Source of the DNA: an uncultured Clostridia bacterium
Lineage (GTDB): Bacteria > Bacillota > Clostridia > Christensenellales > Borkfalkiaceae
Length of the DNA stretch: 64,000 nt
Direction: 5' to 3'
Assembly (NCBI GenBank): GCA_947632505.1
Contig: CANRPN010000001.1
Location: 3,870 to 67,869 of the forward strand
Part shown: positions 5,375 to 46,985 of the stretch, one piece after another
How the letters are laid out: every line of letters begins with the position of its first letter
Numbering within the stretch: the first letter of the stretch is position 1
Position numbers and translations under genes: made by a program
Notes under the pieces: model-generated
What the model saw: the letters and a program-made list of their open reading frames with translations, nothing else
What the model was told of the DNA's origin: nothing
Database searches by the model: none

Positions 5375-5660
5375 GCCTGCATTTTTGTGCGGAGGAGAAA
5401 AGCGACGCCTCAGTCACCTATAAGGGTCACCGTTTGCGCAGCGAATGCGCTTACTCATGTCGCATTGCGCCAACGGTTATCAACCGTTGGCAGAAAGCAG
5501 TGCTCCACCCATAAATGGGGGCAGGTCTGCGTGAGAAAAGAAACGCACAAACAAAGAAAAAATAGCGGAACCGATAAAAATCGCTTTTCTTTTTGACGTC
5601 AATGTGTTAAAATGTAATCTGCGAAATTTTGGAGACGAAAACTTTATCAGGAGATCTGTT

Positions 5661-6965
5661 ATGAAATACGAAGTGAAACCCGCAGAAAAAAGCACAGTGA
5701 AAATCACGATCCATTTCACACCCGAAGAATGGGCGGAGGCAAACAACAAAGCCTATGTGCAAAACAGAAGCAAGTATGCCGTAAACGGCTTCCGCAAGGG
5801 CAAAGCGCCCAAGCATGTGCTCGAAATGTACTACGGGAAGGGCCTCTTCTATGAGGACGCGCTCAATTTGCTCTACTATGAGCATTACGGCAAGATCCTC
5901 GAAGAGGAAAAGGAACACTTCACCGCCGTGGGCGATCCCTCTCTCTCCCTCGGGGAGGATTTTTCGGAGGAGAATATCGTTCTCGTTGCCGACGTTCCCG
6001 TGAAGCCCGAGGTCACGATCGGCAGCTACAAGGGTATAAAAATCACCAAGTATGAGTATACTGTTACGGACGCGGACGTGGAGAAAGAGATCGAAAGCGT
6101 GCGTGAGCGCATCGCCGAGAGCGTGGAAGTCAGCGACCGTCCCGCGCAGATGGGCGATACGGTCAACATTGACTTCGTCGGCAAGACGGACGGCAAGGAG
6201 TTCGACGGCGGCACTGCCGCAGGCTACGACCTCGTGCTCGGCTCCCACTCCTTTATTCCCGGTTTTGAAGAGGGCGTCGTCGGGATGAATCCCGGTGAAG
6301 TCAAGGAGATCGAAGTCACCTTCCCCGAGGACTACCAGGCGGAAGAACTCAAAGGCAAGCCCGCCGTTTTTACGGTCACGCTGCACAAGATCACGGGGAA
6401 ACTGCTTCCCGAACTCAATGAGGAATTTGCGAAGAAGATGGGCAGCGACAGCATGGAGGCCTACACCGCCAAGGTGCGGGAGCGCCTCGAAAAGAATGCC
6501 GCCTCCCGTTCCCTCAACGAAACGGAAAACAGCATCCTCACCGAGATCGCAAAGACGGCCTCTGCGGAGATCCCCCAGATCATGATCGACCGCCAGTGCG
6601 ATGCTTCCCTGCAACGCATGGAGTACAACCTCATGTATCAGGGGATCAAACTCGACGACTATCTCAACTATATCGGCTCCACCCGCGAGGAGTATAAGAA
6701 GAATTTCGAAGAGGAGGCGCGGACGGCCGTTTTGCACCAACTCATCGTGGAAAAGCTCATCGAGCTGGAACACATCGCCGCCTCCGAGGAGGAGATCGCA
6801 GCCAAGGTCGCCGAGCAGGCCGCAAGCGTCGGGAAGGAACCCGAGGAATACAAAAAGACGATGGATCCCCGTCAGCTGGAATACATCGAGAACGACATCA
6901 AGGTAACCAAGCTGTTCGAATTTTTACAGGCAAACAATGAAATGATCCCTGCGGAGGAGAAATAA
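5661..6965 (+). CDS. tig: Trigger factor
   Basis: [17 protein letters not shown]..., GFRKGKAP signature, FKBP-type middle domain; SD caggag upstream; tig-clpP-clpX synteny. Confidence 0.95.
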
Positions 6966-6966
6966 T

Positions 6967-7560
6967 ATGAACGAAAAGAATGTACTCATTCCCTATGTTG
7001 TAGAGCGTACCTCGGGCGGCGAGCGGAGCTATGACCTCTATTCCCGCCTCCTCGAAGACCGTATCGTCTTTTTGAGCGGTGAGATCGACGACGCGACCGC
7101 AAATACCGTCGTAGCGCAGCTCATCTATCTCGAAGGGAAAGACCCCGCCAAGGACATCAGTCTCTATATCAACAGCCCGGGCGGTTCCGTCTCTGCGGGA
7201 CTTGCGATTTACGACACCATGAACTATATCAAGTGCGACGTCTCCACGATCTGCATCGGCATGGCGGCGAGCATGGCGGCCTTCTTGCTCTCTTCGGGAG
7301 CACGCGGAAAGCGCTATGCCCTCAAAAACAGCGAGGTGATGATCCACCAGCCCCTCGGCGGAGCGCAGGGTCAGGCGAGCGACATCCGCATCCAGGCCGA
7401 GCATATTTTGCGGATCAAGCAAAAAATGAATGCCATTCTCGCCCGCAACACGGGCAGAACGGTGCAGGAACTCGAACGCGACACAGACCGAGATAATTAT
7501 CTCACCGCCGATGAGGCACTCCAATACGGACTCATCGACAGAGTGTACGAAAAGCGTTGA
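6967..7560 (+). CDS. clpP: ATP-dependent Clp protease proteolytic subunit
   Basis: [17 protein letters not shown]..., INSPGGSV, and the GMAASMAA catalytic Ser context. Confidence 0.97.
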
Positions 7561-7592
7561 CAAACAGCGCGCAACCATCAGTTAGGAGTGAT

Positions 7593-8825
7593 ATGGCAAA
7601 ATACGAACAAAGCTGTTCCTTCTGCGGGAAGGAAAAATCCAAAACAAGAAAACTCATCGCCGGTCCCGACGGGATCTTTATTTGCGACGAATGCGTGGAA
7701 TTGTGCAAGGACATTCTCGATAAGACGCCTTCCAACGCTCCGGCGGAACAGGTAGAGCTCAAAAAGCCCGCCGAGATCAAGGAAGAACTCGACCAATATA
7801 TCGTCGGCCAGGATAAGGCAAAGAGAGTGCTCTCCGTTGCGGTGTATAACCACTATAAGCGCATCAATTCCATTTTGGCCGGCAAGAAAGATGATGACGT
7901 CGAGATCGAAAAGAGCAATATTTTATTGCTCGGGCCTACGGGCAGCGGAAAAACGCTTCTCGCGCGCACGCTTGCCAAAATTCTCAATGTTCCCTTCGCA
8001 ACCAGCGACGCAACTACGCTCACGGAAGCGGGTTATGTCGGCGAGGACGTGGAAAATATCCTCTTAAAACTCATCCAAAACGCCGATTACGACATCGAAC
8101 GGGCGCAGCGCGGCATTATCTATATTGATGAGATCGATAAAATTGCGCGCAAAGGGGAAAACGTCTCCATCACGCGCGACGTCTCGGGCGAAGGGGTACA
8201 GCAGGCGCTTTTGAAGATCATCGAGAGCACGGTCGCGAACGTTCCCCCGCAGGGCGGCAGAAAACACCCCCAGCAAGACTGCATGCGCATCGACACAACG
8301 AACATCCTCTTTATCTGCGGCGGCGCGTTCGTGGGGCTGGATAAGATCGTGAGCGCAAGAAAAGACGATACGGGACTTGGATTCGGCAGCAAGGTAAAGC
8401 TCGGCGAGAACGAGGTGGACTATACGCTCCTCGACGACGTGAAACCGCAGGATCTCACGAAGTTCGGGCTGATCCCCGAATTTGTTGGGCGCATTCCCAT
8501 TGTGGTGGCGCTGCAAGCGCTCGACGAGGATGCACTCGTGAACATCCTGACCCAGCCCAAGAACGCCATCATCAAGCAATACCAAAAACTCGTCGGATTC
8601 GACGGCGTCAAGCTCACGGTGGAGGACGAGGCTGTGCACGAGATCGCCAATACCGCGATCAGGCTGAAAACGGGCGCGCGGGGCTTACGGACGATCATCG
8701 AGGGTATCATGACGGACATCATGTTCGACATTCCCACCGAGAACAATGTGGAAGAGGTGATCATCACCAAGGACTGCGTGGAAAAGGGCGCCCGTCCCAA
8801 GCTCGTTTATAAGAAGAGCGCATAA
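7593..8825 (+). CDS. clpX: ATP-dependent Clp protease ATP-binding subunit ClpX
   Basis: Zinc-finger CSFCGK...CDEC, Walker A GPTGSGKT, and [12 protein letters not shown] at 7593 follows aggag. Confidence 0.97.
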
Positions 8826-9166: not shown

Positions 9167-12016
9167 ATGAAGAAGTACATGATCCGTATTCTGACCGTGC
9201 TGTGCCTGGTTTGCTTCGGAGCGGCGATGTTTGTCGGCTGTAAAGAAGAGCCGAAAGAACCGCCCGTAGAAGACACCCAATACACGGTCACTTACGCCGC
9301 AGGCGGCGGTACGGGAACTGCTCCCGCCGTGGAGAAGTACAAAGAGGGCGATACCTTTAAGGTAAAGGAAAATCCTTTCTCCAAAGAGGGCAGCACTTTT
9401 AAGACGTGGAACGACGGTTCCAAGGATTATGCTCCCGGCGCCGATTACACCATGCCCAAGAAGAACGTAACGTTCACTGCGCAGTGGGAAGAAAACGGCA
9501 CGGTCACGCCTGCAACGAAGGTAACCGTTACATATAGCCTCGGCGAAAATTCAACGGGAAAGGCTCCTGATGCGCAAGAGGTCGATAAGGGCGGACAAGT
9601 AACCCTTCCCGCGGCTCCCGCATGGGAAGGCCATACCTTTAAGGGCTGGAAGGTCGGAAACGACGCTACGTTGAAGAAAGCGGGCGATAAGATCACCGTC
9701 AACGAAAACGTCACCGTCACCGCGCAGTGGGAAGTGCAGAAGGAACAAGTCACCGTCACCTTCGATCTCGGCGGCGTGGAACTGCTCAATCCCCAAGACT
9801 CGAAGACTGCATGGACTACGCCTAATCCCGTACAGACCAACAAGGACGAAGAATATACTCTTCCCGCAGCTCCCGCATGGTGGGCAGGCCATATGTTCAC
9901 GGGTTGGAAAGTAGGCGACGGCGAAGTCAAGAAAGCGGGTGAAAAGATCACGCCTACCGCAGATGTCAAGCTCACCGCTCAGTGGAAAGAAGCGCAGAGC
10001 ATCACGGGTGCATCGTTCGAAACGACAGTGGATACGGTTTATGTCGTTGTGGTCGGGACTTATGAAGGCTACACCGACGAAGGAATGCAGAGCGCGCTCG
10101 AAAACTGCAATGAGAGAATTTTGAAATTCAGTATCTGCCAGGCTCATACCCCCTATGATTATTTGGAACCCGATATTGAAGCAGAAGCCGAGAAAGGGAC
10201 TTTCACGATTAAGTTCGACGTGACCGATTTCGAAAACGACTCGTATTTTGTTACCGAAAACAGAAACGGTTATGGCAATGTCAAGGCTGTTACATGCGAA
10301 GAAACCGAGATTTTGGGTGCCAAAAAATATCAGCTCGTCGGTAGCGTCGGGAATGACTTGACACTCACAGTAAGCAATGCAAGTCAGTCGAGAGATCTTA
10401 CCGATATCACATTGACGAAAGAGGGGGATAAGATCTACCTCTCTTACATCGGCACCTTTATGGGCTATACCGATGCAGAGTTGAAGGCCTATCTCGAAGA
10501 TGAAAGCATCTTCTATTTCTGGGGAAATGGCGGTGCGCAGAGCCAAAACCCTGCGAGAGTTGCTACCGTTTCCGCCGGCACATGGACACTCAAATTCGAT
10601 GTCACCGATCTGCCCGACGATAAAGAATATGCGCTTTGCTGGAAAGATTTTACCGGAAAACTCGGTGCTGACTTGGTCCATCCGAAGGCGGACGCGACCG
10701 ATACCACGTTGACTTTGAATAATCGTTCCTATCATCTGATTGTAAAGGCTTGGAATGATGCTTGCCGTCTTGAAATCGGAGCCGCGGCTACCGAACCTCC
10801 CGCAGATCAGACTTGCGTTGTTACCGGATTGGACATTGCAGTCGATGAGACAGCGCAGAAAGTTTATCTTACGGCCAGCGGTACTTTTACGGGCTACACC
10901 GAAGCCGAACTTAAAGCCCTCTTTGAAGGCACCAACAAGATGTATGTCCATTTTTGGGGCGATTCGGCAAAGATGGAAACTCCCGCGAGCACTGTCGTGA
11001 CGACGAGCGAAGGGACCTGGACTGCGAAAAGCGATGTTACCAATCTGAAAGATGACGAACTCCGCAACGTCCTCATCAATGGCGAATTGAAACTTGACAT
11101 TCAAGATAAGACGGTCGTACTCGGTGAAAAGGCATACACGCTTCAAAAGGCAAACGGCTATGGTAACACGGGGCTTAGAGTCGGGGCGAAGTTTGCAAGA
11201 CCTTCTTCCGCTCGGCTTGAACTCACTCCTGACAAGGGCAACGGCACGGACGAGAACTTCAAAAACGACATCGAAAAAGCCTTCTTCGTGATTTCGGGTA
11301 AATATTACAGTGAAGTCACGGAAAGCGAAGCGAAAACTTTCTTCTCGAAAGACAAATATCCTTTCGAGTTCGGTAGCTATAACAGCACCAAAGATCGTAT
11401 CAGAAGGATCTCGATCGACACCACGGCGCACACCTATACCGTGAAGTTCGATGTCAGTTGGCTTCCCGCTGGCGAGCATTATTGCCGCTTCGGCCCGAAG
11501 GGCGGAAACGACGACCTCAGGCTCTCTAAACAGGCTTGTCCCGACAACACCGTGAAATCGGTCGGCAGCACCTATACGCTCACCAATTATAACGGAACGG
11601 ATGACCATTGGGGCTGCATCGTTCTGAAAGTGGAGCGCAACTACGCTGTCACGGGTGTAACCGTTCAAGAAGAAAGCGGCAAACCCACCCTTACCGTCAG
11701 CGGCACGTTCGACAGCGCATTCACGCCCGAACAGATCAAGAAGTTCCTCGAAGACGAGGATATCCGTTCGATGTGCGTCGACCTCTATGGCGAAGGCTGG
11801 AACAAAGTCAAGACCGTCGTCACCACCGAAGCGGGCAAGTTCACCGTGAAGATCGACCTCTCCGAAGTGGCAAACGGAAGTTATATCGTTGCTATCGACG
11901 CCAGCGGCTACGGCAATATCACGATGGAAAGCATCACGGGTACCTTGTCGAGCGGCGGAAAAACTTATACCCTTTCCGTAGACGGAGACAAGAACGTAAA
12001 ACTCACGATCGCATAA
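9167..12016 (+). CDS. Large surface lipoprotein: three Listeria-Bacteroides (Flg_new / InlB B-repeat) domains followed by five copies of an uncharacterised ~135-aa module
   Basis: Signal peptide with lipobox (MFVGC). Three units of the form YTVTY...F.GW...vTAQW. Then five units containing GT(Y/F)xGYT(D/E)AELKA...GTWT.KFDVT(D/N)L. Confidence 0.8.
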   Translation: MKKYMIRILTVLCLVCFGAAMFVGCKEEPKEPPVEDTQYTVTYAAGGGTGTAPAVEKYKEGDTFKVKENPFSKEGSTFKTWNDGSKDYAPGADYTMPKKNVTFTAQWEENGTVTPATKVTVTYSLGENSTGKAPDAQEVDKGGQVTLPAAPAWEGHTFKGWKVGNDATLKKAGDKITVNENVTVTAQWEVQKEQVTVTFDLGGVELLNPQDSKTAWTTPNPVQTNKDEEYTLPAAPAWWAGHMFTGWKVGDGEVKKAGEKITPTADVKLTAQWKEAQSITGASFETTVDTVYVVVVGTYEGYTDEGMQSALENCNERILKFSICQAHTPYDYLEPDIEAEAEKGTFTIKFDVTDFENDSYFVTENRNGYGNVKAVTCEETEILGAKKYQLVGSVGNDLTLTVSNASQSRDLTDITLTKEGDKIYLSYIGTFMGYTDAELKAYLEDESIFYFWGNGGAQSQNPARVATVSAGTWTLKFDVTDLPDDKEYALCWKDFTGKLGADLVHPKADATDTTLTLNNRSYHLIVKAWNDACRLEIGAAATEPPADQTCVVTGLDIAVDETAQKVYLTASGTFTGYTEAELKALFEGTNKMYVHFWGDSAKMETPASTVVTTSEGTWTAKSDVTNLKDDELRNVLINGELKLDIQDKTVVLGEKAYTLQKANGYGNTGLRVGAKFARPSSARLELTPDKGNGTDENFKNDIEKAFFVISGKYYSEVTESEAKTFFSKDKYPFEFGSYNSTKDRIRRISIDTTAHTYTVKFDVSWLPAGEHYCRFGPKGGNDDLRLSKQACPDNTVKSVGSTYTLTNYNGTDDHWGCIVLKVERNYAVTGVTVQEESGKPTLTVSGTFDSAFTPEQIKKFLEDEDIRSMCVDLYGEGWNKVKTVVTTEAGKFTVKIDLSEVANGSYIVAIDASGYGNITMESITGTLSSGGKTYTLSVDGDKNVKLTIA

Positions 12017-14691: not shown

Positions 14692-15765
14692 ATGTGTCTT
14701 GCCGAAAATTCCCAGCCAATGAGTAGCGAAGAGAAGTACGAAGGATTGACATATGCTACGCGATCGGAGGGGGTACGGCAGGCGCTTGCATGTTCGGCCG
14801 GAAAGGTACTGTTGCTTTCGGAGGACGCCTCCCTTTCGGAATTTTCCACCTCGCCGCGCACGATCTCGATGATTTTCGACGGCGACACCCTTCCGTTGTT
14901 TGCCATGCCGGACGGCGTCTCCCGCATCATCGCCTCGGGCGGAAAGAAAGTTCTCTTTGCCGCGCGCTATTTTGCGGATGTGCGGCAGATTCCCTGTACA
15001 TTGTTCCCCGATTCCGCTGCTCTATTCGGCGCGTTTGAGCAGCAGGGCGAAGTCGTGCTCGGCGGTGAGCGCGTTTTGGCCCACCTCGCGGAGGGAGAGT
15101 GCGTGTGCGACAAAGAGCGCATGCTTCCCACCCTTGCAGACGGGTTTTCGCGGCTTCTTCTCACCCGTCTTGCTGCGTTCGAGGCGGAAGCGCTCAATGC
15201 GTTTGGAATTTCCTGCCGCGGGATCGAGGCGGAGCTCCCGGAAACGGCGGAGGGGATCATCGCGGAAAATGCCCGCGTGCGCCGCGCCGAAAGCTGCGGC
15301 GGTTATGGCGGTGAGGGCACGGTGCTCAGCGGCTTTCTCGGAAAAGAAGAATGCCCCGCATGGAGCGCCTATCTCTTGCTGTCATCGCTGTATGCGGCAT
15401 TCTTCGAGAAGGGCAAACCGCGGCGCTACGCAACGCCCGATTACCGCGCAAGAGCGGAACGTGCGGGGGTGGAGCAATGCTCTATCCGCATTCCCACGAG
15501 GGAAGAATATGCGGTGCGCGCCCTCATCTTGGAGCGTACCCGTGCGCACTTTGTGCGGGGTATCTCCTCTCATATCACAAAACGGGAGGAATACTGCGCG
15601 CTTGTTTCCCGTTTGGAAGGAAAACTGCTGCCCATAAAAGGGGGCAATATGGATAAACTTGAAATTTTGCCCGAACATGCGGGAAGCGGGCTCTCCGCGA
15701 TCATCCGCGACTTCGGCCTTATGGAATGGCATCATGACAAAAGAAGCTCTGTTAAATCAAACTGA
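14692..15765 (+). CDS. Hypothetical protein; weak, degenerate resemblance to the DHQS / Fe-ADH / glycerol-1-phosphate dehydrogenase fold
   Basis: SD gggagga precedes the ATG at 14692. KVLLLSED...IIASGGKKVLFAARYFADVRQIPCTLFPDS resembles the GGGxxxDxxK...PxxxVPT nucleotide-binding region, but key residues are substituted. Confidence 0.55.
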   Translation: MCLAENSQPMSSEEKYEGLTYATRSEGVRQALACSAGKVLLLSEDASLSEFSTSPRTISMIFDGDTLPLFAMPDGVSRIIASGGKKVLFAARYFADVRQIPCTLFPDSAALFGAFEQQGEVVLGGERVLAHLAEGECVCDKERMLPTLADGFSRLLLTRLAAFEAEALNAFGISCRGIEAELPETAEGIIAENARVRRAESCGGYGGEGTVLSGFLGKEECPAWSAYLLLSSLYAAFFEKGKPRRYATPDYRARAERAGVEQCSIRIPTREEYAVRALILERTRAHFVRGISSHITKREEYCALVSRLEGKLLPIKGGNMDKLEILPEHAGSGLSAIIRDFGLMEWHHDKRSSVKSN

Positions 15766-16516
15766 TCTGTTCCTGTTGGATCTCGACGGCACCGTCTATC
15801 TCGATGAAACGCCGATCGGCAGCGCAGCTGAGACGCTGCAAGCGCTGCGCGTGCGCGGCAAGCAGCTCGTCTTTCTCACGAACAATTCTTCCAAGACAGA
15901 GGAAGAATATCGCGCAAAGCTCATCCGTATCGGGCTTTGGGGAGAAGGCGACCGCGTGTACACTTCGGGGATGGCGACGATCTCCTATTTGGGCAGACAC
16001 TTTGCGGGAAAGCGGGTCTATCTTGTGGGCACGGAGGCGCTGAAACGCGAGTTTTCGGCGGCGGGCATTGTGCTCGATGAGGAGGACCCCGACCTCTGCG
16101 TGCTTGCCTATGACGTCCAACTCACTTTTGCAAAAATCAAAAAACTGAACGCTTTTTTGAGGGCGGGGAAACCGTTTTTTGCCACCCATCCGGACGACGT
16201 CTGCCCCACAAAAGACGTGCCTATGCCCGACGTCGGCTCCTTCCTTGCCATGTTCGAGCGCTCTTCCGGGAGAAAACCCGATCTGATCATCGGAAAGCCA
16301 TTCACGCCGATGGGAGAGGAACTTGCCTCATTTACGGGAACGCCTCAGGCCAAAATGTGTATGATCGGGGACCGCATGCATACCGACATCCGTTTCGCCG
16401 CAAACAACGGGATGAAGAGCGTGCTCGTCCTCTCGGGTGAGACCACGCGGGAGACGATGAAAAATTTCCCCGATCGGCCCGATTTGGTGCTGGAAACGAT
16501 CAATGAAATTTTATAA
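15734..16516 (+). CDS. HAD-IIA family sugar-phosphate phosphatase (NagD/AraL-like)
   Basis: FLLDLDGTVY (DxDGT motif I), LTNNSS (motif II), GDRMHTDI (motif IV). Overlaps the previous gene by 32 nt. Confidence 0.85.
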   Translation: MTKEALLNQTDLFLLDLDGTVYLDETPIGSAAETLQALRVRGKQLVFLTNNSSKTEEEYRAKLIRIGLWGEGDRVYTSGMATISYLGRHFAGKRVYLVGTEALKREFSAAGIVLDEEDPDLCVLAYDVQLTFAKIKKLNAFLRAGKPFFATHPDDVCPTKDVPMPDVGSFLAMFERSSGRKPDLIIGKPFTPMGEELASFTGTPQAKMCMIGDRMHTDIRFAANNGMKSVLVLSGETTRETMKNFPDRPDLVLETINEIL

Positions 16517-16569
16517 AGCCGTTTGAAAGAATGCGCTTTGGTGGTATAATGAATAAGCGGAGGTCCTGT

Positions 16570-16872
16570 ATGCAAGAAGTAACCATTCTCAAAACCGCGC
16601 CCTTGACTTTTTCTTTGAGCGGGGAAATCGATTCCAAAAATGCCGAGGAGTTTTATGCCGCGGTGCTCGCTGCCTATGAAAAGGAGAAGGGAGATATCGT
16701 GTTCGACTGCGAAACGCTCACTTTCATCGACTCCACCACTTTGGGCACGTTTGTCAAGATCTTGAAGCATGTGCGTTCAGACGGGCACGGCATGAAGCTC
16801 ATCAAAATGCAGCCCCGTTTGAAAAAACTGTTCGTAATTTGCGCACTCGATACGATCATGGAGATAGAATGA
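16570..16872 (+). CDS. STAS-domain anti-sigma-factor antagonist (SpoIIAA/RsbV-like)
   Basis: About 100 aa. FIDSTTLG contains the conserved phosphorylatable Ser context (DSSGLG in SpoIIAA). Confidence 0.85.
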   Translation: MQEVTILKTAPLTFSLSGEIDSKNAEEFYAAVLAAYEKEKGDIVFDCETLTFIDSTTLGTFVKILKHVRSDGHGMKLIKMQPRLKKLFVICALDTIMEIE

Positions 16873-17231
16873 TGCTGATGAACATGGAATTTCCCCTCGA
16901 TCGGGAGATTATGACGACGGTGCGTTTGGCAACGGGCGGGATCTGCTCTCTCGCCGGATTCGGCTTGGATGCCTCCGAGGACTGCAAGGTATGCATTACC
17001 GAAAGCCTTCTCCTGCTGCTGCACGCCGGCTGTAAAAGAGCCAAACTCGGCTTTTTTCGTGAGGAAGGGCTGAGGATCGAACTGCTGGGAGAGGGCGGCG
17101 TTCCCTCCGAAGAAAAGACGACGGAAGAGGAGATCTCCGTTGCGCTTCTTACCGCTCTTGTAGACGGCCTTTCCATTGAGAGCACAGCAGGAGGCACCCG
17201 AATTTCTTTTGCTTTTAAGGACGCGGAATGA
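16869..17231 (+). CDS. Truncated, apparently degenerate SpoIIAB/RsbW-like anti-sigma protein (no recognisable ATP-binding boxes)
   Basis: Sits in the SpoIIAB position and aligns with its N-terminal region (MEFPLDREIMTTVRLATGG...ITESLLLLLHAG). The N-box Asn, the DxGxG box and the GxGxG box are absent. Its ATG overlaps the upstream stop (ATGA). Confidence 0.6.
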   Translation: MMLMNMEFPLDREIMTTVRLATGGICSLAGFGLDASEDCKVCITESLLLLLHAGCKRAKLGFFREEGLRIELLGEGGVPSEEKTTEEEISVALLTALVDGLSIESTAGGTRISFAFKDAE

Positions 17232-17953
17232 ACGAGAGTGAACTGTTCGCAACCTATCGCGCAAGCGGTGATCTCGCGGTCCGCAACAAGATCGTGGAAC
17301 AATATCTCCCCGTCGCGGCAATGATCGCCAAAAAGTTTGTGGGACGCGGAGTGGAGTTTGACGATCTCTATCAGATCGCGTCTCTTGCGCTCATAAAGGG
17401 AGTCGACCGCTTTGACGAGACGAAAGGGGTCAAATTTTCCACGTTCATCACGCCGACGATCGCGGGCGAGATCAAAAATTACTTCCGCGACCGTTCCCGT
17501 CTCATTCATCTGCCGCGAAGAGTTTCCGAGCTCCGCCACAGCGCGCGCAAAACGGCCGACCGCATTTTAGCGGAGACGGGCAAGAATCCCTCTCCGCGAG
17601 AGATCGCAGCCGAATTGGGGGTGTCGGAAGAGGACCTCGTTACGGCAATGGAGTCCGGGAGCGTCGTATCCCTCGACCGTCCCGCCGAGGACGGGGAAGG
17701 CGGGAGCTATTATGACGTGATCGCCGCTCCCGCAGACGATTTCGAATTTTTAGAGCGGACGGATGCGGTGCACGCGGCGCTCGGCGATCTTACAGAGGAG
17801 GAGCGCAAGATCGTCGATCTCCGTTTCGGCAAAGAGCTCTCCCAGGCGGAGACCGCGCAGCGGCTGAACACCACGCAAATGCATATCTCCCGCATGGAAC
17901 ATAAAATTTTGGAAAAACTGAAAGAGAACCTCAAAAAGAGTGCGGTAGACTGA
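17228..17953 (+). CDS. Sigma-70 family sigma factor, SigB/SigF/SigG subgroup
   Basis: Region 2 (DDLYQIASLALIKGVDRFD, TFITPTIAGEIKNYFRD) and region 4 HTH (LSQAETAQRLNTTQMHISRMEHKIL). Operon context with the STAS gene. Confidence 0.9.
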   Translation: MNESELFATYRASGDLAVRNKIVEQYLPVAAMIAKKFVGRGVEFDDLYQIASLALIKGVDRFDETKGVKFSTFITPTIAGEIKNYFRDRSRLIHLPRRVSELRHSARKTADRILAETGKNPSPREIAAELGVSEEDLVTAMESGSVVSLDRPAEDGEGGSYYDVIAAPADDFEFLERTDAVHAALGDLTEEERKIVDLRFGKELSQAETAQRLNTTQMHISRMEHKILEKLKENLKKSAVD

Positions 17954-18309
17954 TGTACTTCGAAATCGACGATTACAACGCGCTGCGAAATGCGCTGCAA
18001 AAGATGAGCCTCGCCTTTCAAAAGGAATTTTCCGAAGAGACGATCTTCAACAGTAAATTGGTGGCGACCGAGCTCTTGTCCAATGTGTTACAGCACGGCG
18101 GGGGACGGGCGCAGTTCCGCGTAGAACGCAGGGGAGACGAGATCTGCATCTGCGTCCAATGCGACAAGAAATTCCGTCCTCCCGAAAAGAGCGCCTGTGC
18201 CGATCTTTATGCCGAATGCGGGCGTGGGCTCTTCCTCGTGGATGCTTTCTGTGAGCGCCGCACTTATACCGAAGAAGAGGGGATCACCGTCTTTCTCAAA
18301 GTACAATAA
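17953..18309 (+). CDS. Small HATPase_c_2-like anti-sigma/Ser-kinase-like protein (118 aa)
   Basis: N-box-like ATELLSNVLQHGGG and G2-like GRGLFLVDAF. Its start overlaps the sigma-gene stop (TGATG). Confidence 0.65.
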   Translation: MYFEIDDYNALRNALQKMSLAFQKEFSEETIFNSKLVATELLSNVLQHGGGRAQFRVERRGDEICICVQCDKKFRPPEKSACADLYAECGRGLFLVDAFCERRTYTEEEGITVFLKVQ

Positions 18310-18333
18310 AACCGCACACAAAGTGCGGTTTTA
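18307..18333. terminator. Bidirectional intrinsic terminator
   Basis: aaaaccgcac-acaaa-gtgcggtttt between convergent genes. Confidence 0.7.
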
Positions 18334-18341
18334 TCGATTTT

Positions 18342-19508
18342 TCAGCGTTCTGTCTCTTCCGCCTGCTCCTGTCCCGGTTCCTGCCCGTCTGTCTCTACGG
18401 ACGGCACTTCGGGGAGCGCCTCCTGTTCGGGTTCCGGGGAAACATCGGGCTTGACTTTCGGAACTTCCTCGGGCTCTTCGGTAAGAGCCGCCATGCGTTC
18501 GGATGCGCGCGCTTCGGGGAGGGCGTCGCGCCGGAGAGGCTCCTTGCGTTCGAAAGTGTGTGCGAAAATCGACACAAGCATGGCGCATAGGGGCGAGAGC
18601 AACAGAAAGAGGGAGGCGAGGGGTTGTTGCATAAAGAAATCCAAAATGGTCCCCTCCGCAAGATAGGCGGCCGCAACGCCCAAAGCCGCCGCAAACTGTA
18701 CGGCGAATCGGAAAATATCGACCGCCTGCGTGCGGGGCCGCTCCAACCGCAGGACGGAGAGGAGCATATTTGCGATCGTGATGATCAGATAGAAATCGAG
18801 GATCAGACGCTTTCCCACGCCGATGTTTCCGGTCGCGATAGAATTGAGGTCGGAAAGGAGGGGCGTCTGCGGAAAAATGAATGCGCACACGGAGAGGGCG
18901 CCCAAAAAAAGCAGGAGCACATTCACCATTCCTCTCGCCCCGCGGTGGGCGACCGCCATTCCCGAAAAAATACAGAAGGCGAGGAGCGCCGCGGTGAGGG
19001 AGGGAAGATCGAGCTGTCTCCAAGAGTACATCTCCTGCCGGATGGAGCCGAGCAGTACCGCCGCCACGCAGAGGGCGCCGTAAACAAAGAGGGTAAGAAA
19101 ACCGTTCAGAGTACAGAAAACACGCGCCGATCTGCCTTTCACGAAGGTGCAGACGGCAAGGACAAGCGAGAGCAGACTTTCCGCGGCAAGCACATAGATC
19201 ATGAAATAGAGAAAAACGGGCAACAGGGAGGATAGCTCTGCACTCTCCGCTTTGGGGAGAGCAATGCTCCCGCGGAACACTTCCACGATCACTCCGAGAA
19301 AGGAGCCGTGCAGAATGGGTTCCCCGCCCGCGATGAGGGCGCCCACCGACCCGCGCATAAAAAAGCCGAGGAAGAGCCCCAGCAGGGAGATCGCGCAAAA
19401 AAGTGCGGAGCAGACCATATAGAAAGGCGCGCGCAAGGTGCGTCCCGCGTTTTTTTTCTCTTTGGTTCGTTCGGACAGAAGGCTACCTGTTGCGGCGTCG
19501 ATCCTCAT
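18342..19508 (-). CDS. Polytopic membrane protein of unknown function with an acidic Pro/Glu-rich C-terminal tail
   Basis: This frame gives about 9 hydrophobic helices, whereas the competing frame (18331-19398) is Arg/Pro-rich junk. The start is moved to ATG 19508, which follows gggggtgaagga. Confidence 0.6.
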   Translation of the reverse strand: MRIDAATGSLLSERTKEKKNAGRTLRAPFYMVCSALFCAISLLGLFLGFFMRGSVGALIAGGEPILHGSFLGVIVEVFRGSIALPKAESAELSSLLPVFLYFMIYVLAAESLLSLVLAVCTFVKGRSARVFCTLNGFLTLFVYGALCVAAVLLGSIRQEMYSWRQLDLPSLTAALLAFCIFSGMAVAHRGARGMVNVLLLFLGALSVCAFIFPQTPLLSDLNSIATGNIGVGKRLILDFYLIITIANMLLSVLRLERPRTQAVDIFRFAVQFAAALGVAAAYLAEGTILDFFMQQPLASLFLLLSPLCAMLVSIFAHTFERKEPLRRDALPEARASERMAALTEEPEEVPKVKPDVSPEPEQEALPEVPSVETDGQEPGQEQAEETER

Positions 19509-19644
19509 TCCTTCACCCCCCGAAGGCTTTTTTGTTCCCTCATTATAGCACTTCGAAAGGGCGGGTGTCAACAGCTCGCCGTGGGGGAAAGGGGTCGTAT
19601 TTTGGAAATTTGAGAATGAGTTTGTGCCGAATTTGTGAAAATCC

Positions 19645-19673
19645 TTGAAAAAGAATTTTTCTCATGTTATAAT
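19645..19673 (+). promoter_or_regulatory. Sigma-A promoter (TTGAAA-17-TGtTATAAT) for the PucR-like gene
   Basis: -35 at 19645-19650 and an extended -10 at 19665-19673. Confidence 0.55.
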
Positions 19674-19730
19674 ATCCGCAGATATGGCGGGATCGCCGCC
19701 TTAAAGTACGGTCACAACAGGGAGAAGAAT

Positions 19731-26217: not shown

Positions 26218-26412
26218 ATGACCAATTTGACGGCCAAAGATTTAGATGTGCTCACGCATGTACTCACGGCGGAAGAAATGGCGTGCAAAAAGGCGAGAAT
26301 TTACGCCAACACGCTCACGGATGCGGCGCTCGCGCAGGAGATGGAGGCGATCGCAGGCGCACACGCAGAGCGTTTCAACGCGCTCTATGCCATTTTGGGA
26401 GGGAAATCATGA
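26218..26412 (+). CDS. Small spore-coat-associated protein (partner of the CotF-like protein)
   Basis: 64 aa. SD ggagg before ATG 26218, and an ATGA overlap with the next gene. Confidence 0.5.
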   Translation: MTNLTAKDLDVLTHVLTAEEMACKKARIYANTLTDAALAQEMEAIAGAHAERFNALYAILGGKS

Positions 26413-26699
26413 AACAGAGCAAACAGGACACCACGCTTAACGAAAAAGACGCGCTTCAAGATATGCTCGATACCGAAAAGCTGCTCATGAGTTACTATTC
26501 TGTCGCGCTCGTAGAGGGGAGCTGTCAGCCTTTCCGCAAGGCGATCCTCAAAAATTACACTTCGAGCGCGGAGACGCAGTTCAACGTGTTCGAGCAGATG
26601 CTCTCGCGCGGCTACTATCAGGTAATGCCCGCCGAAAAGATGCTCATCGACCAAAAGACGGAGACGTTTTCCAAAGTCCAAAAGCAGATCGCACAGTGA
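26409..26699 (+). CDS. Coat F domain (CotF-like) spore coat protein
   Basis: LNEKDALQDMLDTEKLLMSYYSVALVEGSCQPFRKAILKNY...FNVFEQMLSRGYY matches the Coat_F pattern. Confidence 0.75.
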   Translation: MKQSKQDTTLNEKDALQDMLDTEKLLMSYYSVALVEGSCQPFRKAILKNYTSSAETQFNVFEQMLSRGYYQVMPAEKMLIDQKTETFSKVQKQIAQ

Positions 26700-34489: not shown

Positions 34490-34805
34490 GATGACCGTTT
34501 GTCCCCGCTGCGGGACGACAATCGATGACTTTCGCCGCACCGGTCTGTTGGGCTGTGCGGAGTGTTACCGTGTCTTTCGCGAGGAGATCCTTCTGACTTT
34601 GCGCCGCGTGCAGGGCAACCATACCCGCCACGAGGGCGGCATTCCCGCCGCTTCTGAGGAAAAATATTCCTTCATGCTCGAACGGCAGCACCTCAAAGAA
34701 GAGATCGAGCGGGCCATGCGCGAGGGCAGGTATGCGGAGGCGGAGGAGTTGCAGCAGCGGCTCAAAGAGAGCAACCGAACCCGCCGCAGGGAGGAACAAT
34801 CATGA
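34482..34805 (+). CDS. mcsA: McsA-like protein (zinc finger plus UVR motif; protein arginine kinase activator)
   Basis: CPRCG...CAECY zinc finger and a C-terminal UVR-like helix ([21 protein letters not shown]). Directly precedes mcsB. The start could be 34482 or 34491. Confidence 0.75.
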
Positions 34806-35899
34806 AGGAGCGCGCAATTTGCTATGAAAACGTCGCCGTCTCCACCCGCATCCGTCTGGCGCGAAATTTCGCAGATTACCCTTTTCCCGGCCGTCTCGGC
34901 AGAGCCGCGGCGCGGGAGATCGTCAGCATTGTCTCGGCCGCACTGCGTGAGGTGGATGCCTTTGAGCTCCGCTATATGGACAGTCTTTCCGAGGAACAGG
35001 CCGAACTATACATCGAACGCTATCTCATCAGCCGCGACCTTTGGAAAAACCGTGCCATTTCCGCCGTGCTACTCTCCCGTCCCGGCGGCCCCAGCCGCAC
35101 GTTCGAAAAGGAACTCTCGGATATTCTCGCGGAAAATACCTCCATTATGATCAATGAGGAGGACCACATCCGCGAACAGTACTTCGTGCGGGGCTTTGAC
35201 TTGGAGCGGGGCTATGAGCGGCTCTCGGGCATTGACGAGATCATTGCCGAGACCATTCCCTTCGCCTGCGACGGGGAGCTCGGTTATCTCACCGCCTGTC
35301 CCACCAATGTGGGGACGGGGCTGCGTGCTTCTGTCATGCTCTTTCTGCCCGCGCTTTCGCGCAGCGGAAGAATGCGTGAGATCGCACCCGAGCTTCGCCG
35401 TATCGGCCTGACCGTGCGCGGCATGTTCGGGGAAGGGAGCGGAGCCGAAGGCGATCTCTATCAGATCAGCAACGAGCGCACCCTCGGTTCCCGCGATACG
35501 GAGATCCTCGCCGTCGTCGAACGAAAGGTGAACGAACTTGTGGAGGATGAGATCGTCGAGCGCGACATTCTGCTGCATGAGGGCGGGATGGCGCTCACCG
35601 ACCGCATTCTGCGTTCTTACGGCATTCTCACCAACTGTGCGCAGATCGATGCGCATGAATTTTTGGAGCGCCTTTCGGATGTCAAGCTCGGCGTTGCGCT
35701 CGGTATGCTCGATGGGGAAATGAGCGATCTCGATATGCTGCTCGTTTCCACCCGCCCTGCGAATCTGCGAACGCTTGCGGAAAGGCCTCTCACCGAGGAA
35801 GAACAGGACATCTTTCGCGCGCAGTACGCCGGCAGAGCGCTTCGGCGCTTCGGAATGCTCGACGAAGAGTTGCGCGGCAATATTTTCCGGAAGGAGTAA
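34802..35899 (+). CDS. mcsB: Protein arginine kinase McsB
   Basis: ATP:guanido phosphotransferase signature (YLTACPTNVGTGLRASVMLFLPAL). ATGA overlap with mcsA. Confidence 0.92.
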   Translation: MKERAICYENVAVSTRIRLARNFADYPFPGRLGRAAAREIVSIVSAALREVDAFELRYMDSLSEEQAELYIERYLISRDLWKNRAISAVLLSRPGGPSRTFEKELSDILAENTSIMINEEDHIREQYFVRGFDLERGYERLSGIDEIIAETIPFACDGELGYLTACPTNVGTGLRASVMLFLPALSRSGRMREIAPELRRIGLTVRGMFGEGSGAEGDLYQISNERTLGSRDTEILAVVERKVNELVEDEIVERDILLHEGGMALTDRILRSYGILTNCAQIDAHEFLERLSDVKLGVALGMLDGEMSDLDMLLVSTRPANLRTLAERPLTEEEQDIFRAQYAGRALRRFGMLDEELRGNIFRKE

Positions 35900-35904
35900 A
35901 AAAT

Positions 35905-38409
35905 ATGGATACATCACATTATTCCGATCATCTTCGCGAAGCGCTCGAACTTGCCAATGAGCTGGAACGCACTTGCCAAACGGGCTATATCGGCAGTGAG
36001 CATCTTATGATCGGACTCATTGCCGTGGAGGACAGCGCCGCAGGCAGATTGCTCACGGAAGTCGGCGTCGATAAAAACCAATACGTTGCCATTTTCAAGC
36101 GCAGCATTGACAGAAACGCGCGCATCCACGGCTACACGCCCCGCACCAAACGGGTGTTGGAGCTCGCCACCGAGCTGAGCGTGCAGGGAGGCAATTATAA
36201 GGTCCTTACGGGGACCGAGCATGTATTGCTTGCCATTCTCATGATGGAGGACTGTCTCGCCGTCAGGATCCTGAAAATGATGGGCGTGGACATCGCCGAT
36301 CTGAAAAACCGTGCCAAGGAGCTCGCGGCGCCCACAAACGAACAGGGGGAACGCATTCCGCTCAAAGAGATCCCGCGCGCTGCGGCTCGCTTCGGCTTTG
36401 AGACCCAGGATCGTCCGGCCCAGCAAGATCGGGCGCATGGCGCTCAGCAGGGGCCGCTTTCGGAGGAGATCATGCGCTATGGAGACGACCTCACCAAAAA
36501 AGCGCGCGAGGGGAAGCTGGATCCCGTGATCGGGCGGGTGAACGAAATCGAAAAGGTCATTCAAATTCTCTCTCGCAGAACAAAAAACAACCCCGTGCTC
36601 GTCGGCGAGCCGGGCGTCGGTAAGAGCGCTGTGGTGGAGGGACTTGCCCGTGCGATCGTCGCGGGAGAGGTCCCCGAGCCCCTGCGCGACAAGACGGTGT
36701 TCTCGCTCAACATCACGAGTATGCTCGCAGGGGCAAAATATCGCGGGGAGTTTGAGGAACGCATCAAAAAAGTCATTGACGAAATCGCTTCCAGCCGAGA
36801 CATCATTCTCTTCATCGACGAGATCCATACCATTGTCGGTGCGGGAGCCTCTGCGGAGAGCCCGCTCGATGCGTCCAATATCTTAAAGCCCATGCTCGCC
36901 CGCGGAGAGTTGCAGACCATCGGTGCTACGACGCTGGAAGAATATCGCAAATTCATCGAAAAGGACCCCGCGCTTGAACGCCGCTTTACGCCCGTCACGG
37001 TGGACCAGCCGAGCGTGGAGGATACCATCACCATTCTGCACGGCTTAAAGGATAAATACGAAGCGCACCACGGCATCGTCATCACGGATGAAGCGATCGA
37101 AGCGGCGGCGCGGCTCTCCGACCGCTACATCACCGATCGCTTCCTGCCCGACAAGGCGATCGATCTCATTGACGAGGCTGCCTCTCATCAGCGGCTTCTC
37201 GCCTATACGGGGCCGAGCGAACTGAGAGAAAAGGAGGAACAGCTCTCCCGTGCGACCGCCGAGCGGGACAAGGCCGCGGGATGGAAGGACTATGCGCGGG
37301 CGGCGGAATTTTCCCGCCAAATCGACGCACTCACCGCCGAGATCGGGGAGATCAAGGAAACTTGGAGCGCCGAGCGCAATTCGTCCCATCTCTCTATCGG
37401 CGCGGAAGAGATCGCCGCCATTGTATCGAGCTGGACGGGCGTTCCCGTTGTCAAGCTCACCGAGGCGGAGAGCGAGCGGCTCATGCACCTCGAAGCGGAA
37501 CTGCATGAGCGCATCGTGGGCCAAGAGGAAGCCGTCACGGCCGTAGCGAAGGCCATCCGACGCGCAAGAGCGGGTCTGAAAGATCCCAACCGTCCCATCG
37601 GTTCGTTTATCTTTGTCGGTCCCACGGGCGTGGGCAAGACCGACCTTTGCAAGGCGCTCGCCGAAAGCCTCTTCGGCGATGAGCGGCTGATGATCCGCCT
37701 CGATATGTCAGAGTATATGGAGAAACACTCCACCTCGAAACTCATCGGCGCGCCTCCCGGTTACGTCGGCTATGAGGACACATCGGGTACTCTTACCGAG
37801 CGCATCCGCAAAAAGCCGTATGCTGTCGTCTTGTTTGACGAGATCGAGAAGGCGCATCCCGACGTATTCAATATTCTATTACAGATCCTCGACGACGGAC
37901 GGCTCACGGACAGCAAGGGCAGGGTCGTCTCCTTCAAAAACACCGTACTCATCATGACGAGCAACGTCGGCGCGCACCAGGTAAAGGAAGTGGGCGTTTT
38001 GGGCTTCCGCACGGCCGAGGAGGAGAGCGAATACGAGAACATGAAGGAGAATATACAGGACGCCTTGAAGCAGAAGTTCCGCCCCGAGTTCTTGAACCGT
38101 TTGGACGAGACGATCATCTTTCACAAGCTCTCCAAGGAGGACGCGGCGCGCATCTGCGACAAGATCATACAGGGTCTGCAAAGGCAGCTCAAAGAGCGGG
38201 AGATCAACATCAAAGTGAGCAACCGCGCCCGCAACAGGCTGGTGGACGAGGGATACAGTGAGGAATACGGCGCGCGGCCTTTGAAGCGCACCGTAAGAAA
38301 GCTCATCGAGGACCGCCTCTCCGAAGAAATTTTGCAGGGTCACCTTCCCGTCGGCGGCACCGTCATCATCGACGAGGTCAACGGCGAACTCACCTTTACC
38401 GAAGAATAA
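35905..38409 (+). CDS. clpC: ATP-dependent Clp protease ATP-binding subunit ClpC
   Basis: Clp_N repeats, two AAA+ modules (GEPGVGKSA and GPTGVGKTD), a UVR-like linker, and mcsA-mcsB-clpC synteny. Confidence 0.95.
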
Positions 38410-46000: not shown

Positions 46001-46985
46001 GTTCGAGAGCATGGGCTTCACCTGCGGCGAGGGGAGCGTGAAAGCGGAGGACGGCGCAACCGTATACGAGCCCTTTGCGATGCCCGGCTGGAAGGGCGGC
46101 ACCGTCTCTACGGGGATCCGCGGCACCGTGTTTCCCGTCAACCAATTCACGGCGAGCAGCCTCATCGCAAAGACGGAACTCGAAGCGGGGGCGACCTATT
46201 CTCTGCGGGTCGCGGTAACGGCAAGTTCGAGCGCGCAGAACGGGCTCATCAACTTTGTCGGAAAGGAGAACGCGCTCATGCTTCTGCAAACGGGAAAAAT
46301 CACGAAATATGTGGACGAAATGCGCGGCAGAGTGCATTTCGACATCGCGGGAGAGGTGACATTCGGCAACGTCTCCATTGCGGTGAGCGTGGGCAGCGCG
46401 AGCACGGCGGGCTTGCAGGTGCCCCTGCCCGGACATTTCTGCCTCGCGCTCAAAGAGGGCAGCGTCACCGTTCCCGATACCGTGGGGCTGAAACTTCTGC
46501 CGGGTGCGGAGTTTACAAGCGAGGCGGGCACGTCTTTCACCGTCAAAGGGGGCGGCGCGCTCTATGCCTACGGGCAGGAAAACCACACCTTTACGGAGGT
46601 CTCCGCCTTTCAGGACGGCAATCTCGGCGGGCTGAAAGCCTATCCCAACGGATATGTTTCGGGGTGCTACCGCAAATCTCCCGCACTCGGCTATACCGCT
46701 TCGACGCCCGCGCGGGTGAACATCGGCGGAACGTTCACGGCCGAGGAAGGGGCCCGCATCGGCGTTAAATTTACGGGCAAGGAGGGCGCGCGTCTGTCCC
46801 TTGCCGAGGGCGGGCACTATGAGAATACCGTGAAGGAGGATTTCAGCACCACAAACGACATCGGCGGATTTATGAACTCCCTCCTCGGCACAGGCGGGAA
46901 ATTCTTTCAAACTTCCTTTACTTGTGCGGACCTTTCTGCCGGGAATTACACCTTTACGGACGGGAATTGGAGCAGAGAGGAATAA
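43005..46985 (+). CDS. Large surface lipoprotein (1,326 aa): Flg_new-like N-terminus, multiple MBG-type repeats, beta-helix-like C-terminal region
   Basis: Lipobox LFALAGC. Repeated motifs Y(V/T)YGE(T/A/E)P.P...G(L/F)V.G(D/E)S and ...NYT... typical of MBG domains. Gly/Asn/Thr-rich C-terminal third. Confidence 0.85.
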   Translation: MKKFLCLGLGLCLLFALAGCSGARSYTVTFKNGESVVKTLEAKAGEQLDLRYCVKAPEKEADESYIYTFSGWTLEEGGEAVIHHTVRGNAVFYAQFQAEKREPQPPAPPEKREFTLYLHVLEETEEQKIVEGDALPLAAPELPALIAFEAWCTDEERTQETELEEMPSRDLHLYAKCGLDLPQGSLVQEGGFVYGEQNTVRVSGLTQAEGLSYAYTWQGAEGEGDSVTLTEAGEHALSVEIVASYRGLSATQTLSQTFSVRKRALQAFVSGQSSYVYGETVSPALHCEGLVHGDSANSLGARFVFAKNGVPVPQNSRLPAGDYTVTAEFPPLKNYELAPISPASFTMTKRPVSAVVTVSDITYGEEPSPQIAWSGILEDESAPSAGEAYVYLKGGEPHTGRFTPGSYTLEVNANAISMENYSLGEVNSCTFTVKKAPLTGTISLQKESVVYGEAPAPALVAEGFVYGESADLAPVFRYLGEKQGDPLPAGEYEVTAELRVPEYYTLASLRTAHLTVEKRTLTPVVAVQTEFTYGETPAPTLEFSGFAAGEGKPQLTISGSGIVYTRNGAPHEGNRFPAGNYTAAADLAALSAENYTFAEGNRAEFSVKKAQGTLDVSGVQREYTYTGSLQTVSGGATTNNSEDGVITYTNNTFTTVAEGEALIVTVTLSEGENYMGATATADGFTVHKQTLTRLPVEAPVLSEQVNKIGKTLADISISDPRFTWKSGGEPLVLGRHGYEAVYDGDPDNVFPFETSLSFSTRKEVFDLSVMGGEGDYEANAAVSGLTLASYTLTDEAGLPCGETVKTYVKFTPTATLTLSVGGTYPVQWTFVLTENDYFKVRYSEETTGETLHEFSGKAPFKWKSVELGGALYTAEDALAALLPQQTATVKYDTSFCAEDFYRGDEFYTVKSGAALLVPFGEEDTGVTEQLTPNRSYEAVAPEGYLTLSLPKGTLAVEGKLIVNADRVSNSNQTSNVRGGAYATLNIGKDAQVVVKHGGVFESMGFTCGEGSVKAEDGATVYEPFAMPGWKGGTVSTGIRGTVFPVNQFTASSLIAKTELEAGATYSLRVAVTASSSAQNGLINFVGKENALMLLQTGKITKYVDEMRGRVHFDIAGEVTFGNVSIAVSVGSASTAGLQVPLPGHFCLALKEGSVTVPDTVGLKLLPGAEFTSEAGTSFTVKGGGALYAYGQENHTFTEVSAFQDGNLGGLKAYPNGYVSGCYRKSPALGYTASTPARVNIGGTFTAEEGARIGVKFTGKEGARLSLAEGGHYENTVKEDFSTTNDIGGFMNSLLGTGGKFFQTSFTCADLSAGNYTFTDGNWSREE

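Follow-up and report, generated by a model that had tools for sequence, protein, structure and literature searches.

Organization of the locus

A stretch of 64,000 nucleotides from an uncultured Clostridia bacterium of the Borkfalkiaceae (assembly GCA_947632505.1, contig CANRPN010000001.1, positions 3,870 to 67,869; called the window below, at its full length) carries four small adjoining genes on its forward strand, and the results presented here support reading them as a partner-switching operon. The first gene (16570-16872, +) encodes a 100-aa STAS protein resembling the anti-sigma antagonists RsbV and SpoIIAA, as judged from the open reading frame (ORF) list, Pfam and TIGR00377. The second (16869-17231, +) encodes a 120-aa protein, here called P2, which stands in the position of RsbW or SpoIIAB and which profile alignment, an AlphaFold2 (AF2) model and Foldseek characterize as a pseudokinase of the RsbW/SpoIIAB/UsfX fold. 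The third (17228-17953, +) encodes a group 3 sigma factor of 241 aa from the SigB/SigF/SigG family, recognized by Pfam regions 2, 3 and 4 and by TIGR02980. The fourth (17953-18309, +) encodes P4, a mini HATPase_c_2 protein of 118 aa identified with Pfam, an AF2 model and Foldseek.

All three junctions overlap: ATGA at 16869-16872, ATGA at 17228-17231 and TGATG at 17951-17955. An initial annotation, made from the sequence alone, had listed the same four ORFs and junctions and had proposed a partner-switching operon. Public gene calls agree with the ORFs, independent assemblies giving the same four products of 100, 120, 241 and 118 aa, and the proposal of a partner-switching operon was borne out.

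A Shine-Dalgarno sequence, GGAGG (16559-16563, +), lies 6 nt 5' of the STAS ATG and is kept as (C)GGAGG in nearly all related loci. Upstream of it is a promoter-like motif, GTTTGA-N16-GGTATA (16521-16550, +), which is conserved upstream of STAS. An alternative STAS ATG at 16531 falls between the -35 and -10 elements of this motif. Because that ATG is inside the promoter-like site and GGAGG is 6 nt upstream of the other, the start at 16570 is taken to be correct. Directly 3' of the P4 stop, the terminator scan found an intrinsic terminator with a 12-bp stem and a T-run (18306-18344, +).

Conservation, selection and transcription

Related loci were collected by a P2 profile scan over a set with a single genome for each species; this gave 80 loci, all from species-level metagenome-assembled genomes (MAGs). 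Since P2 was used as the bait, the presence of P4 at these loci is an unbiased test. The hosts of all 80 loci are uncultured Clostridia, "Christensenellaceae" or Candidatus Gallimonas, and their MAGs come from rabbit, chicken, mouse and other guts. The order STAS-P2-sigma-P4 on one strand, which the initial annotation had noted as departing from the canonical module, was found in 80/80 loci. P4 itself was found in 78, and the two exceptions are contigs which end inside the sigma gene, so conservation of the fourth gene in relatives, on which the initial annotation had staked its proposal, is now documented.

The junctions are also tight across this set. STAS and P2 are spaced by -4 in 63 loci and by -1 in 11, P2 and sigma by -4 or -1 in 56, and sigma and P4 by -1 in 45 and -4 in 20. 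A more distant carrier, GCA_022508245.1, has a P4 relative at 31% identity in the same four-gene unit, flanked by the same PucR and S41-peptidase neighbours. Because so distant a relative keeps the same unit, the four-gene architecture predates the clade of the 80 loci. The median pairwise ratio of nonsynonymous to synonymous substitution rates (dN/dS) is 0.23-0.40 for all four genes, which shows that STAS, P2, sigma and P4 are under purifying selection.

Contigs of two metatranscriptome runs, X18 and X20, cover all four genes within the interval examined (15600-19700). Run X20 covers 16546-18429 only, with the flanking genes uncovered, and the RNA contig cover drops after ~18430, past the terminator. 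The four translationally coupled genes are thus one conserved, transcribed unit, and the invariable order, the tight junctions, the dN/dS values and the RNA cover argue that the operon is not a chance arrangement.

Promoter and leader

Of 80 sequences (the window and 79 loci), 69 carry the motif GTTT[GC]A-N15-16-G[GT]TA 5' of STAS. A stricter form of it occurs 57 times upstream of STAS and 3 times elsewhere in 881 kb, counting both strands. Within the 64 kb window the motif has a single occurrence, against 0-0.04 expected by chance. In a loosely anchored alignment of 65 sequences, a G precedes TTT in 63 and a G stands two bases before TA in 64, while only 32 have the -7 T required by a sigmaA promoter.

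The motif agrees with the published consensus of C. difficile sigB, WGWTT-N13-17-(G/T)GGTAWA (PMC7482061), and with that of mycobacterial SigF, GGWWT-N16-17-GGGTAY (PMC7693655). Its conservation and its fit to these sigB-type sequences suggest that the operon is autoregulated by its own sigma factor.

The leader was found to hold a second element in part of the set. In 40/80 loci, the 45 nt 5' of the STAS start contain a GC-rich hairpin with a minimum free energy of -10 kcal/mol or lower, which ends at or overlaps the GGAGG. It is missing from the window and its closest relatives. Such a hairpin could control translation or mRNA stability.

The STAS antagonist

The STAS protein scores 62.8 bits on Pfam PF01740 and 66.6 bits on TIGR00377 (cut-off 53.45), above the curated cut-offs. 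Its phospho-acceptor, Ser55, lies in an almost invariant FIDSTTLG loop, and Ser55 aligns with S58 of SpoIIAA and S56 of RsbV. Ser55 is invariant in 80/80 loci, as are the other residues of D54-S55-T56, L58 and G59, so the phosphorylatable serine that the initial annotation had picked out is kept throughout. An acceptor serine under such constraint implies that phosphorylation still matters and that a kinase exists.

P2, the protein in the RsbW/SpoIIAB position

P2 has no Pfam match above cut-off and reaches only 14.6 bits on HATPase_c_2, where the cut-off is 27.4. It gives a 24-bit match to RsbW, limited to the N-terminal 50 residues of RsbW. In searches with the P2 profile, B. subtilis RsbW (6m36) comes up with E 2e-6, and M. 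tuberculosis UsfX/RsbW (8jzt, 8ih8) with E 3e-3. The AF2 model of P2 has a mean predicted local distance difference test (pLDDT) score of 92.7, and its top Foldseek matches are structures of RsbW, UsfX and SpoIIAB (6m36, 8ih8, 1th8, 1l0o and 8jzt), each found at a probability of 1.00; their TM scores are 0.65-0.83. P2 is therefore confidently modelled as a Bergerat-fold alpha/beta sandwich like RsbW and SpoIIAB.

Within this fold, the nucleotide-binding motifs have gone. In the profile alignment to 6m36, the position of the N-box Asn is taken by a near-invariant L49, that of the G1 Asp by a near-invariant G74, and the Gly-x-Gly of the G2 box is replaced by E-I-S. These replacements are conserved over 118 sequences, and the ATP lid has shrunk to a loop of ~9 residues. 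The initial annotation had stated that P2 lacks the N-box Asn, the G1 box and the G2 box and is probably no kinase; the alignment agrees, and a check in it for intact Bergerat motifs found none. Because all three boxes are replaced, P2 is a pseudokinase.

What P2 has kept is the part of RsbW at the N-terminus. The best-conserved stretches of the family are the two N-terminal helices, alpha1 and alpha2, in which VRLATGGV of P2 matches IRLTLSGV of RsbW and EDCKVCVTE matches EDLKIAVSE. The invariant residues of P2 are T16, R19, L20, G23, G24, E37, D38, K40, C42, T44 and E45. R19 aligns with R20 of SpoIIAB, a residue that SpoIIAB requires to bind sigmaF as well as SpoIIAA. From this retained alpha1-alpha2 signature, R19 included, we infer that binding of sigma would fall to P2, which is probably a stoichiometric anti-sigma factor.

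The P2 family is large, with at least 1122 clusters at 90% identity. The members listed are all ~116-124 aa long, unannotated and without a Pfam domain, and the sole source name met for the family, in one cluster, is "hypothetical protein".

Three cysteines of the family, C26, C39 and C42, are invariant or near-invariant. Two of them form a CxxC within helix alpha2 (SEDC39KVC42VTE), where RsbW has Leu and Ala, and the invariant G23-G24 of helix alpha1 may pack against the cysteine site. The cysteines could serve helix packing, or, the host being an anaerobe, they could make the anti-sigma factor switchable by redox state or metal.

P4, the protein encoded after the sigma gene

On HATPase_c_2, where the cut-off is 27.4, P4 reaches 34.6 bits, and the C-terminal domain of RsbA_anti_sig gives 39.8 bits. 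The initial annotation had counted both small proteins as HATPases of this kind; the scan upholds this for P4 and leaves P2 below the cut-off. The AF2 model of P4 has a pLDDT of 90.7, and its top Foldseek matches are RsbW and SpoIIAB.

Among 160 unique family sequences, E40, N44, A53, G90, R91 and G92 are invariant, and D97 and R103 are each present in 159. Position 48 is H or Y, and G49 and G50 are near-invariant. P4 thus keeps both the N-box (ExxxNxxxH) and the G2 box (GxGL), as the initial annotation had seen in the single sequence when it noted an N-box and a G2-like box.

The loss of the G1 box is a point absent from that annotation. The family pattern that follows strand 63-70 is V-R-[GSC]-[EASDT]-N-x-[FY]-R-P-P, with no Gly pair. 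Position 70 is G, S or C, and position 71 is E in 86 sequences, D in 10, A in 25, S in 17 and T in 7, so that an acidic residue stands there in only 60% of members. More distant P4 relatives carry DxGxGF at the G1 place, from which it follows that the G1 box of P4 degenerated and was not deleted. The idea that the whole G1 segment had been deleted was tried and rejected, as the segment is present, degenerate and at most one residue shorter.

The P4 family comprises 96 clusters at 50% identity (E<=1e-10), and beyond these it grades into the general HATPase_c_2 superfamily. The clusters listed are mostly ~115-126 aa long, fragments aside, and one carries the source name "ATP-binding protein". 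A further match was discarded: the 4044-aa protein P0241 matches P4 positions 63-113 in 19 stretches at E 1.7e-35, but it is a repetitive surface protein of actinobacterial type, and the match is a repeat or composition artefact and not an array of HATPase domains.

Judged from its motifs, P4 is a candidate STAS kinase or nucleotide-dependent modulator, and kinase activity on STAS is plausible. P4 might also be a non-catalytic modulator which binds P2 or sigma, either as a booster like mycobacterial RsbW3 or as a second, weaker anti-sigma factor; an unlinked kinase would then phosphorylate STAS, if STAS is phosphorylated at all. The degenerate G1 box and the weak match of P4 to solved kinases both speak for such a role, and there is a precedent in RsbW3, a kinase-negative member of the SigF regulon that antagonizes RsbW1 (PMC7693655). 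The invariant E40, N44 and G90-R91-G92, together with the near-invariant H48/Y, G49, G50, D97 and R103, are however hard to explain without a nucleotide/Mg site, and the invariant STAS serine implies a kinase, for which the conserved unit offers no candidate other than P4. A purely non-catalytic P4 is for these reasons considered doubtful.

Relation between P2 and P4

The P2 and P4 profiles barely recognize each other: hhalign gives a probability of only 5.6%, a weak match which is nevertheless in register at the N-box helix. Recent paralogy of the two was rejected on this ground, and the weakness of the match makes their duplication an old one. In the AF2 models, the first strand is much shorter in P4 (E2-5) than in P2 (E2-9).

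These comparisons bear on the possibility that the homodimer of RsbW or SpoIIAB has given way to an obligate heterodimer of P2 and P4, in which one subunit would grip sigma and STAS and the other would keep the nucleotide site. This would be a subfunctionalization of an inherently asymmetric homodimer, with the nucleotide subunit setting the affinity or supplying phosphotransfer. Both proteins share the fold of the dimeric RsbW and SpoIIAB, they strictly co-occur and are translationally coupled, and their motif losses are complementary. An interaction between RsbW1 and RsbW3 of M. smegmatis, for which a heterodimer was proposed (PMC7693655), offers a parallel. A pairing of this kind fits poorly with two profiles that can hardly be aligned and with the much shorter first strand of P4, and we regard it as unlikely.

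A mirror-tree test was also run on the operon. Partial correlations were 0.49 for P2-sigma, 0.28 for P4-sigma and 0.14 for P2-P4; the last and lowest value counts nominally against a heterodimer, but the test as a whole is uninformative because flanking housekeeping control pairs span -0.12 to 0.72.

Identity of the sigma factor

The sigma factor has Pfam regions 2, 3 and 4 all present. Its best model is TIGR02980 (SigB/SigF/SigG), at 213.4 bits and below the cut-off of 234.35. On the equivalog models it scores 161 for SigF (TIGR02885, cut-off 321), 153.8 for SigB (cut-off 315) and 133 for SigG, all far below the cut-offs. Conversely, a profile of the sigma family scores B. subtilis SigB at 194.7, SigF at 178.6 and SigG at 158, a modest margin. 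HLPRR and the SQM(Y/H)VSR recognition helix are SigB-like, while other positions are SigF/G-like.

This profile of scores leaves room for a different identity, in which the operon is the lineage's divergent spoIIA (spoIIAA-spoIIAB-sigF), P2 is the SpoIIAB orthologue, the sigma factor is the forespore sigmaF and P4 has been added. The question here is one of identity, and each of the mechanisms considered would be compatible with it. The order of the first three genes matches, and SigF is nominally the best equivalog (161 against 153.8 for SigB), although at half of its cut-off of 321. Some sporulation context exists as well: the carrier GCA_022508245.1 has the sporulation genes yqfC (YabP-like) and yqfD 5 kb from the unit, the window has a Coat_F ORF (26283-26699), and some Christensenellales MAGs, including those of the family CAG-74, are predicted spore-formers, while most are predicted to be non-sporulating (PMC12536801).

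Several features of the operon itself point away from spoIIA. The sigma family profile ranks SigB above SigF and SigF above SigG, and HLPRR and SQM.VSR are SigB-like. The conserved promoter is of the GTTT-N-GGTAT (sigB) type, unlike the promoter of B. subtilis spoIIA, which is of the sigmaH/Spo0A type. No spoVA or dacF neighbours were found, the gut metatranscriptome contigs cover the operon and not the flanking genes, and P2 is without the kinase motifs of SpoIIAB. An identity as spoIIA thus appears quite improbable.

Proposed mechanism

Taking these results together, we favour a sigB-type (group 3) partner switch in which labour is divided between two small, very divergent RsbW paralogues that replace the bifunctional RsbW, and we give this interpretation a probability of roughly 45%. 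P2 would sequester sigma stoichiometrically through its retained alpha1-alpha2 region (R19, ED-K-V-TE), and unphosphorylated STAS would displace P2 from sigma. P4, in whose helix 1 the family alignment has no conserved Arg, would not sequester sigma; it would phosphorylate STAS at Ser55, or act on the complex in some other nucleotide-dependent way, and so bring about the off state. P4 would be made from the same, probably sigma-dependent, transcript, so that the switch would carry its own negative feedback. Reactivation of STAS, and with it the input, would come from an unlinked PP2C phosphatase. No further paralogues of STAS, HATPase or sigma were found in the window, either among the four genes and 34 other ORFs covered by Pfam scans or precomputed Pfam matches or in six-frame hidden Markov model searches.

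The divided-labour interpretation has to be weighed against observations which fit it less well, and these concern P4, the sigma factor and promoter, and the phosphatase. P4 has no conserved G1 Asp or DxGxG box across the 160 sequences, and 35 of the 160 have no acidic residue anywhere at positions 70-73. In GHKL ATPases the G1 Asp normally contacts adenine, and because it is not conserved, ATP binding by P4 may be weak or lost. The assignment of the sigma factor to SigB over SigF, drawn from sequence comparison, is not firm. The site in the window can also be read as a sigmaA promoter, TTGAAA (16523-16528)-N16-TGgTATAAT (16545-16550), which matches at 11/12 with a TG extension. The first X20 contig begins at 16546, inside the predicted -10, and not ~7 nt past it. 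Finally, no PP2C phosphatase was found, either adjoining the operon or in the set of 34 further window ORFs covered by Pfam scans or precomputed Pfam matches.

The sigmaA-like site is the only good sigma-70-type promoter-like site found at the operon. Plain sigmaA as the sole reading of the promoter was considered and rejected, since the -7 T is missing from half of the promoters at orthologous loci, while the flanking Gs are kept.

The initial annotation had suggested that sigma binding and kinase functions may be split between the two small proteins. One side of that suggestion held up, with P2 read as a pseudokinase and P4 keeping its N-box and G2 box; the other is weakened by the missing conserved G1 Asp and DxGxG box of P4. 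The idea is also less novel than the annotation implied, because such paralogues are known from RsbW1, RsbW2 and RsbW3 of M. smegmatis (PMC7693655).

Comparison with known systems

Of the known systems, that of mycobacterial SigF comes closest. In M. smegmatis, RsbW1, the orthologue of UsfX, is a kinase-negative anti-SigF; RsbW2 is the only RsfB kinase and does not bind SigF; and RsbW3 is a kinase-negative paralogue which binds RsbW1 and boosts SigF (PMC7693655). A split of anti-sigma and kinase roles between RsbW paralogues is therefore already known. As in mycobacteria, a kinase-negative protein of RsbW fold adjoins a group 3 sigma gene in our operon, and UsfX (8jzt, 8ih8) is matched by both the profile and the model of P2. 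In the mycobacterial system, a separate RsbW paralogue phosphorylates the STAS antagonist on a conserved Ser, a role for which P4 is here a candidate only, as judged from its motifs; a further paralogue can act by paralogue-paralogue binding, and the autoregulatory promoter is of a similar type, GTTT-N16-17-GGGTAY (PMC7693655).

The two systems also differ in several ways. In mycobacteria, the kinase gene lies away from the sigma locus, together with the gene for RsfB and next to those for a histidine kinase and a PP2C phosphatase, whereas here all four genes form one coupled operon. RsbW2 has the N, G1 and G2 boxes, and P4 is without G1. The mycobacterial RsbW paralogues are 138-194 aa long, compared to ~120 aa for P2 and P4, and the host is actinobacterial there and a Clostridia lineage known from sequence here.

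The rsbV-rsbW-sigB(-rsbX) operon of B. subtilis shares the order of antagonist, anti-sigma factor and sigma factor, as well as the conserved STAS Ser, and the sigB systems of B. subtilis and C. difficile share a sigB-type promoter before the antagonist gene. RsbW is the best structural and sequence match of P2, but RsbW has 160 aa and is an active Ser kinase that carries the N, G1 and G2 boxes, of which P2 has none. In the B. subtilis sigB operon, the fourth gene after sigB is rsbX, a feedback gene that encodes a PP2C phosphatase, whereas the fourth position here is held by a HATPase_c_2 protein. The sigma factor also stays below the SigB equivalog cut-off (153.8 against 315).

In the case of the sporulation operon spoIIAA-spoIIAB-sigF, the folds of both P2 (TM up to 0.83) and P4 strongly match SpoIIAB structures (1th8, 1l0o and 1tid). 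SpoIIAB, unlike P2, is an active kinase; the operon described here has a fourth gene and another promoter type, its sigma factor scores 161 where the SigF cut-off is 321, and no sporulation neighbours adjoin it.

What is new here is the combination: a single coupled operon, a second paralogue after the sigma gene, both small proteins at ~120 aa, a candidate kinase without G1, and a Clostridia host. In the literature, no paper was found that links Christensenellaceae with RsbW.

Other features of the window

Elsewhere in the window, the ORF at 26283-26699 (+) matches Coat_F (spore coat protein F) at 44.7 bits against a cut-off of 25.7, a hint of sporulation genes in the organism, at present or in its past. 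In GCA_022508245.1 (L086, 15346-16474), a cluster of yqfC(YabP-like)-yqfD-phoH-7TM_HD-ybeY-era lies 5 kb from the four-gene unit.

Two very large ORFs, of 949 aa (9167-12016, +) and 1326 aa (43005-46985, +), have Listeria-Bacteroides repeat (Flg_new) domains, and a third, of at least 3090 aa (54729-64000, +), runs off the end of the window. These three may encode surface proteins. Inspecting the translations by eye, we take the ORF at 34802-35899 (+) to be McsB-type arginine kinase-like and the one that follows it, at 35905-38409 (+), to be ClpC-like; the ORFs at 7557-8825 and 5604-6965 are presumably ClpX-like and trigger-factor-like, respectively.

Significance

In its textbook form, partner switching relies on a single, bifunctional anti-sigma kinase. 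The operon described here amounts to a compact experiment of nature on that mechanism, since binding and nucleotide functions apparently reside in two ~120-aa proteins whose genes flank the sigma gene, an arrangement kept in at least 80 genomes at species level. P2 offers a minimal pseudokinase anti-sigma factor for structural work, and P4 is a test case for ATP binding and kinase activity in a GHKL domain that lacks the G1 Asp.

A bolder version of this, which we think unlikely, is that a clade of gut Clostridia runs a sigB/F-type switch on an obligate pair, in which the pseudokinase P2 would only sequester sigma, and P4, at ~118 aa and without G1, would both bind nucleotide and phosphorylate STAS. 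In such a pair, P2 may sense redox or metal through its CxxC (C39/C42) and C26. If P4 were indeed an active STAS kinase without G1, it would be the smallest known, non-canonical Bergerat-fold Ser kinase.

If the lineage sporulates, the operon could even be its sigmaF switch. The operon also opens a way to study how stress responses, or possibly development, are regulated in abundant but uncultured gut bacteria that resemble the Christensenellales.

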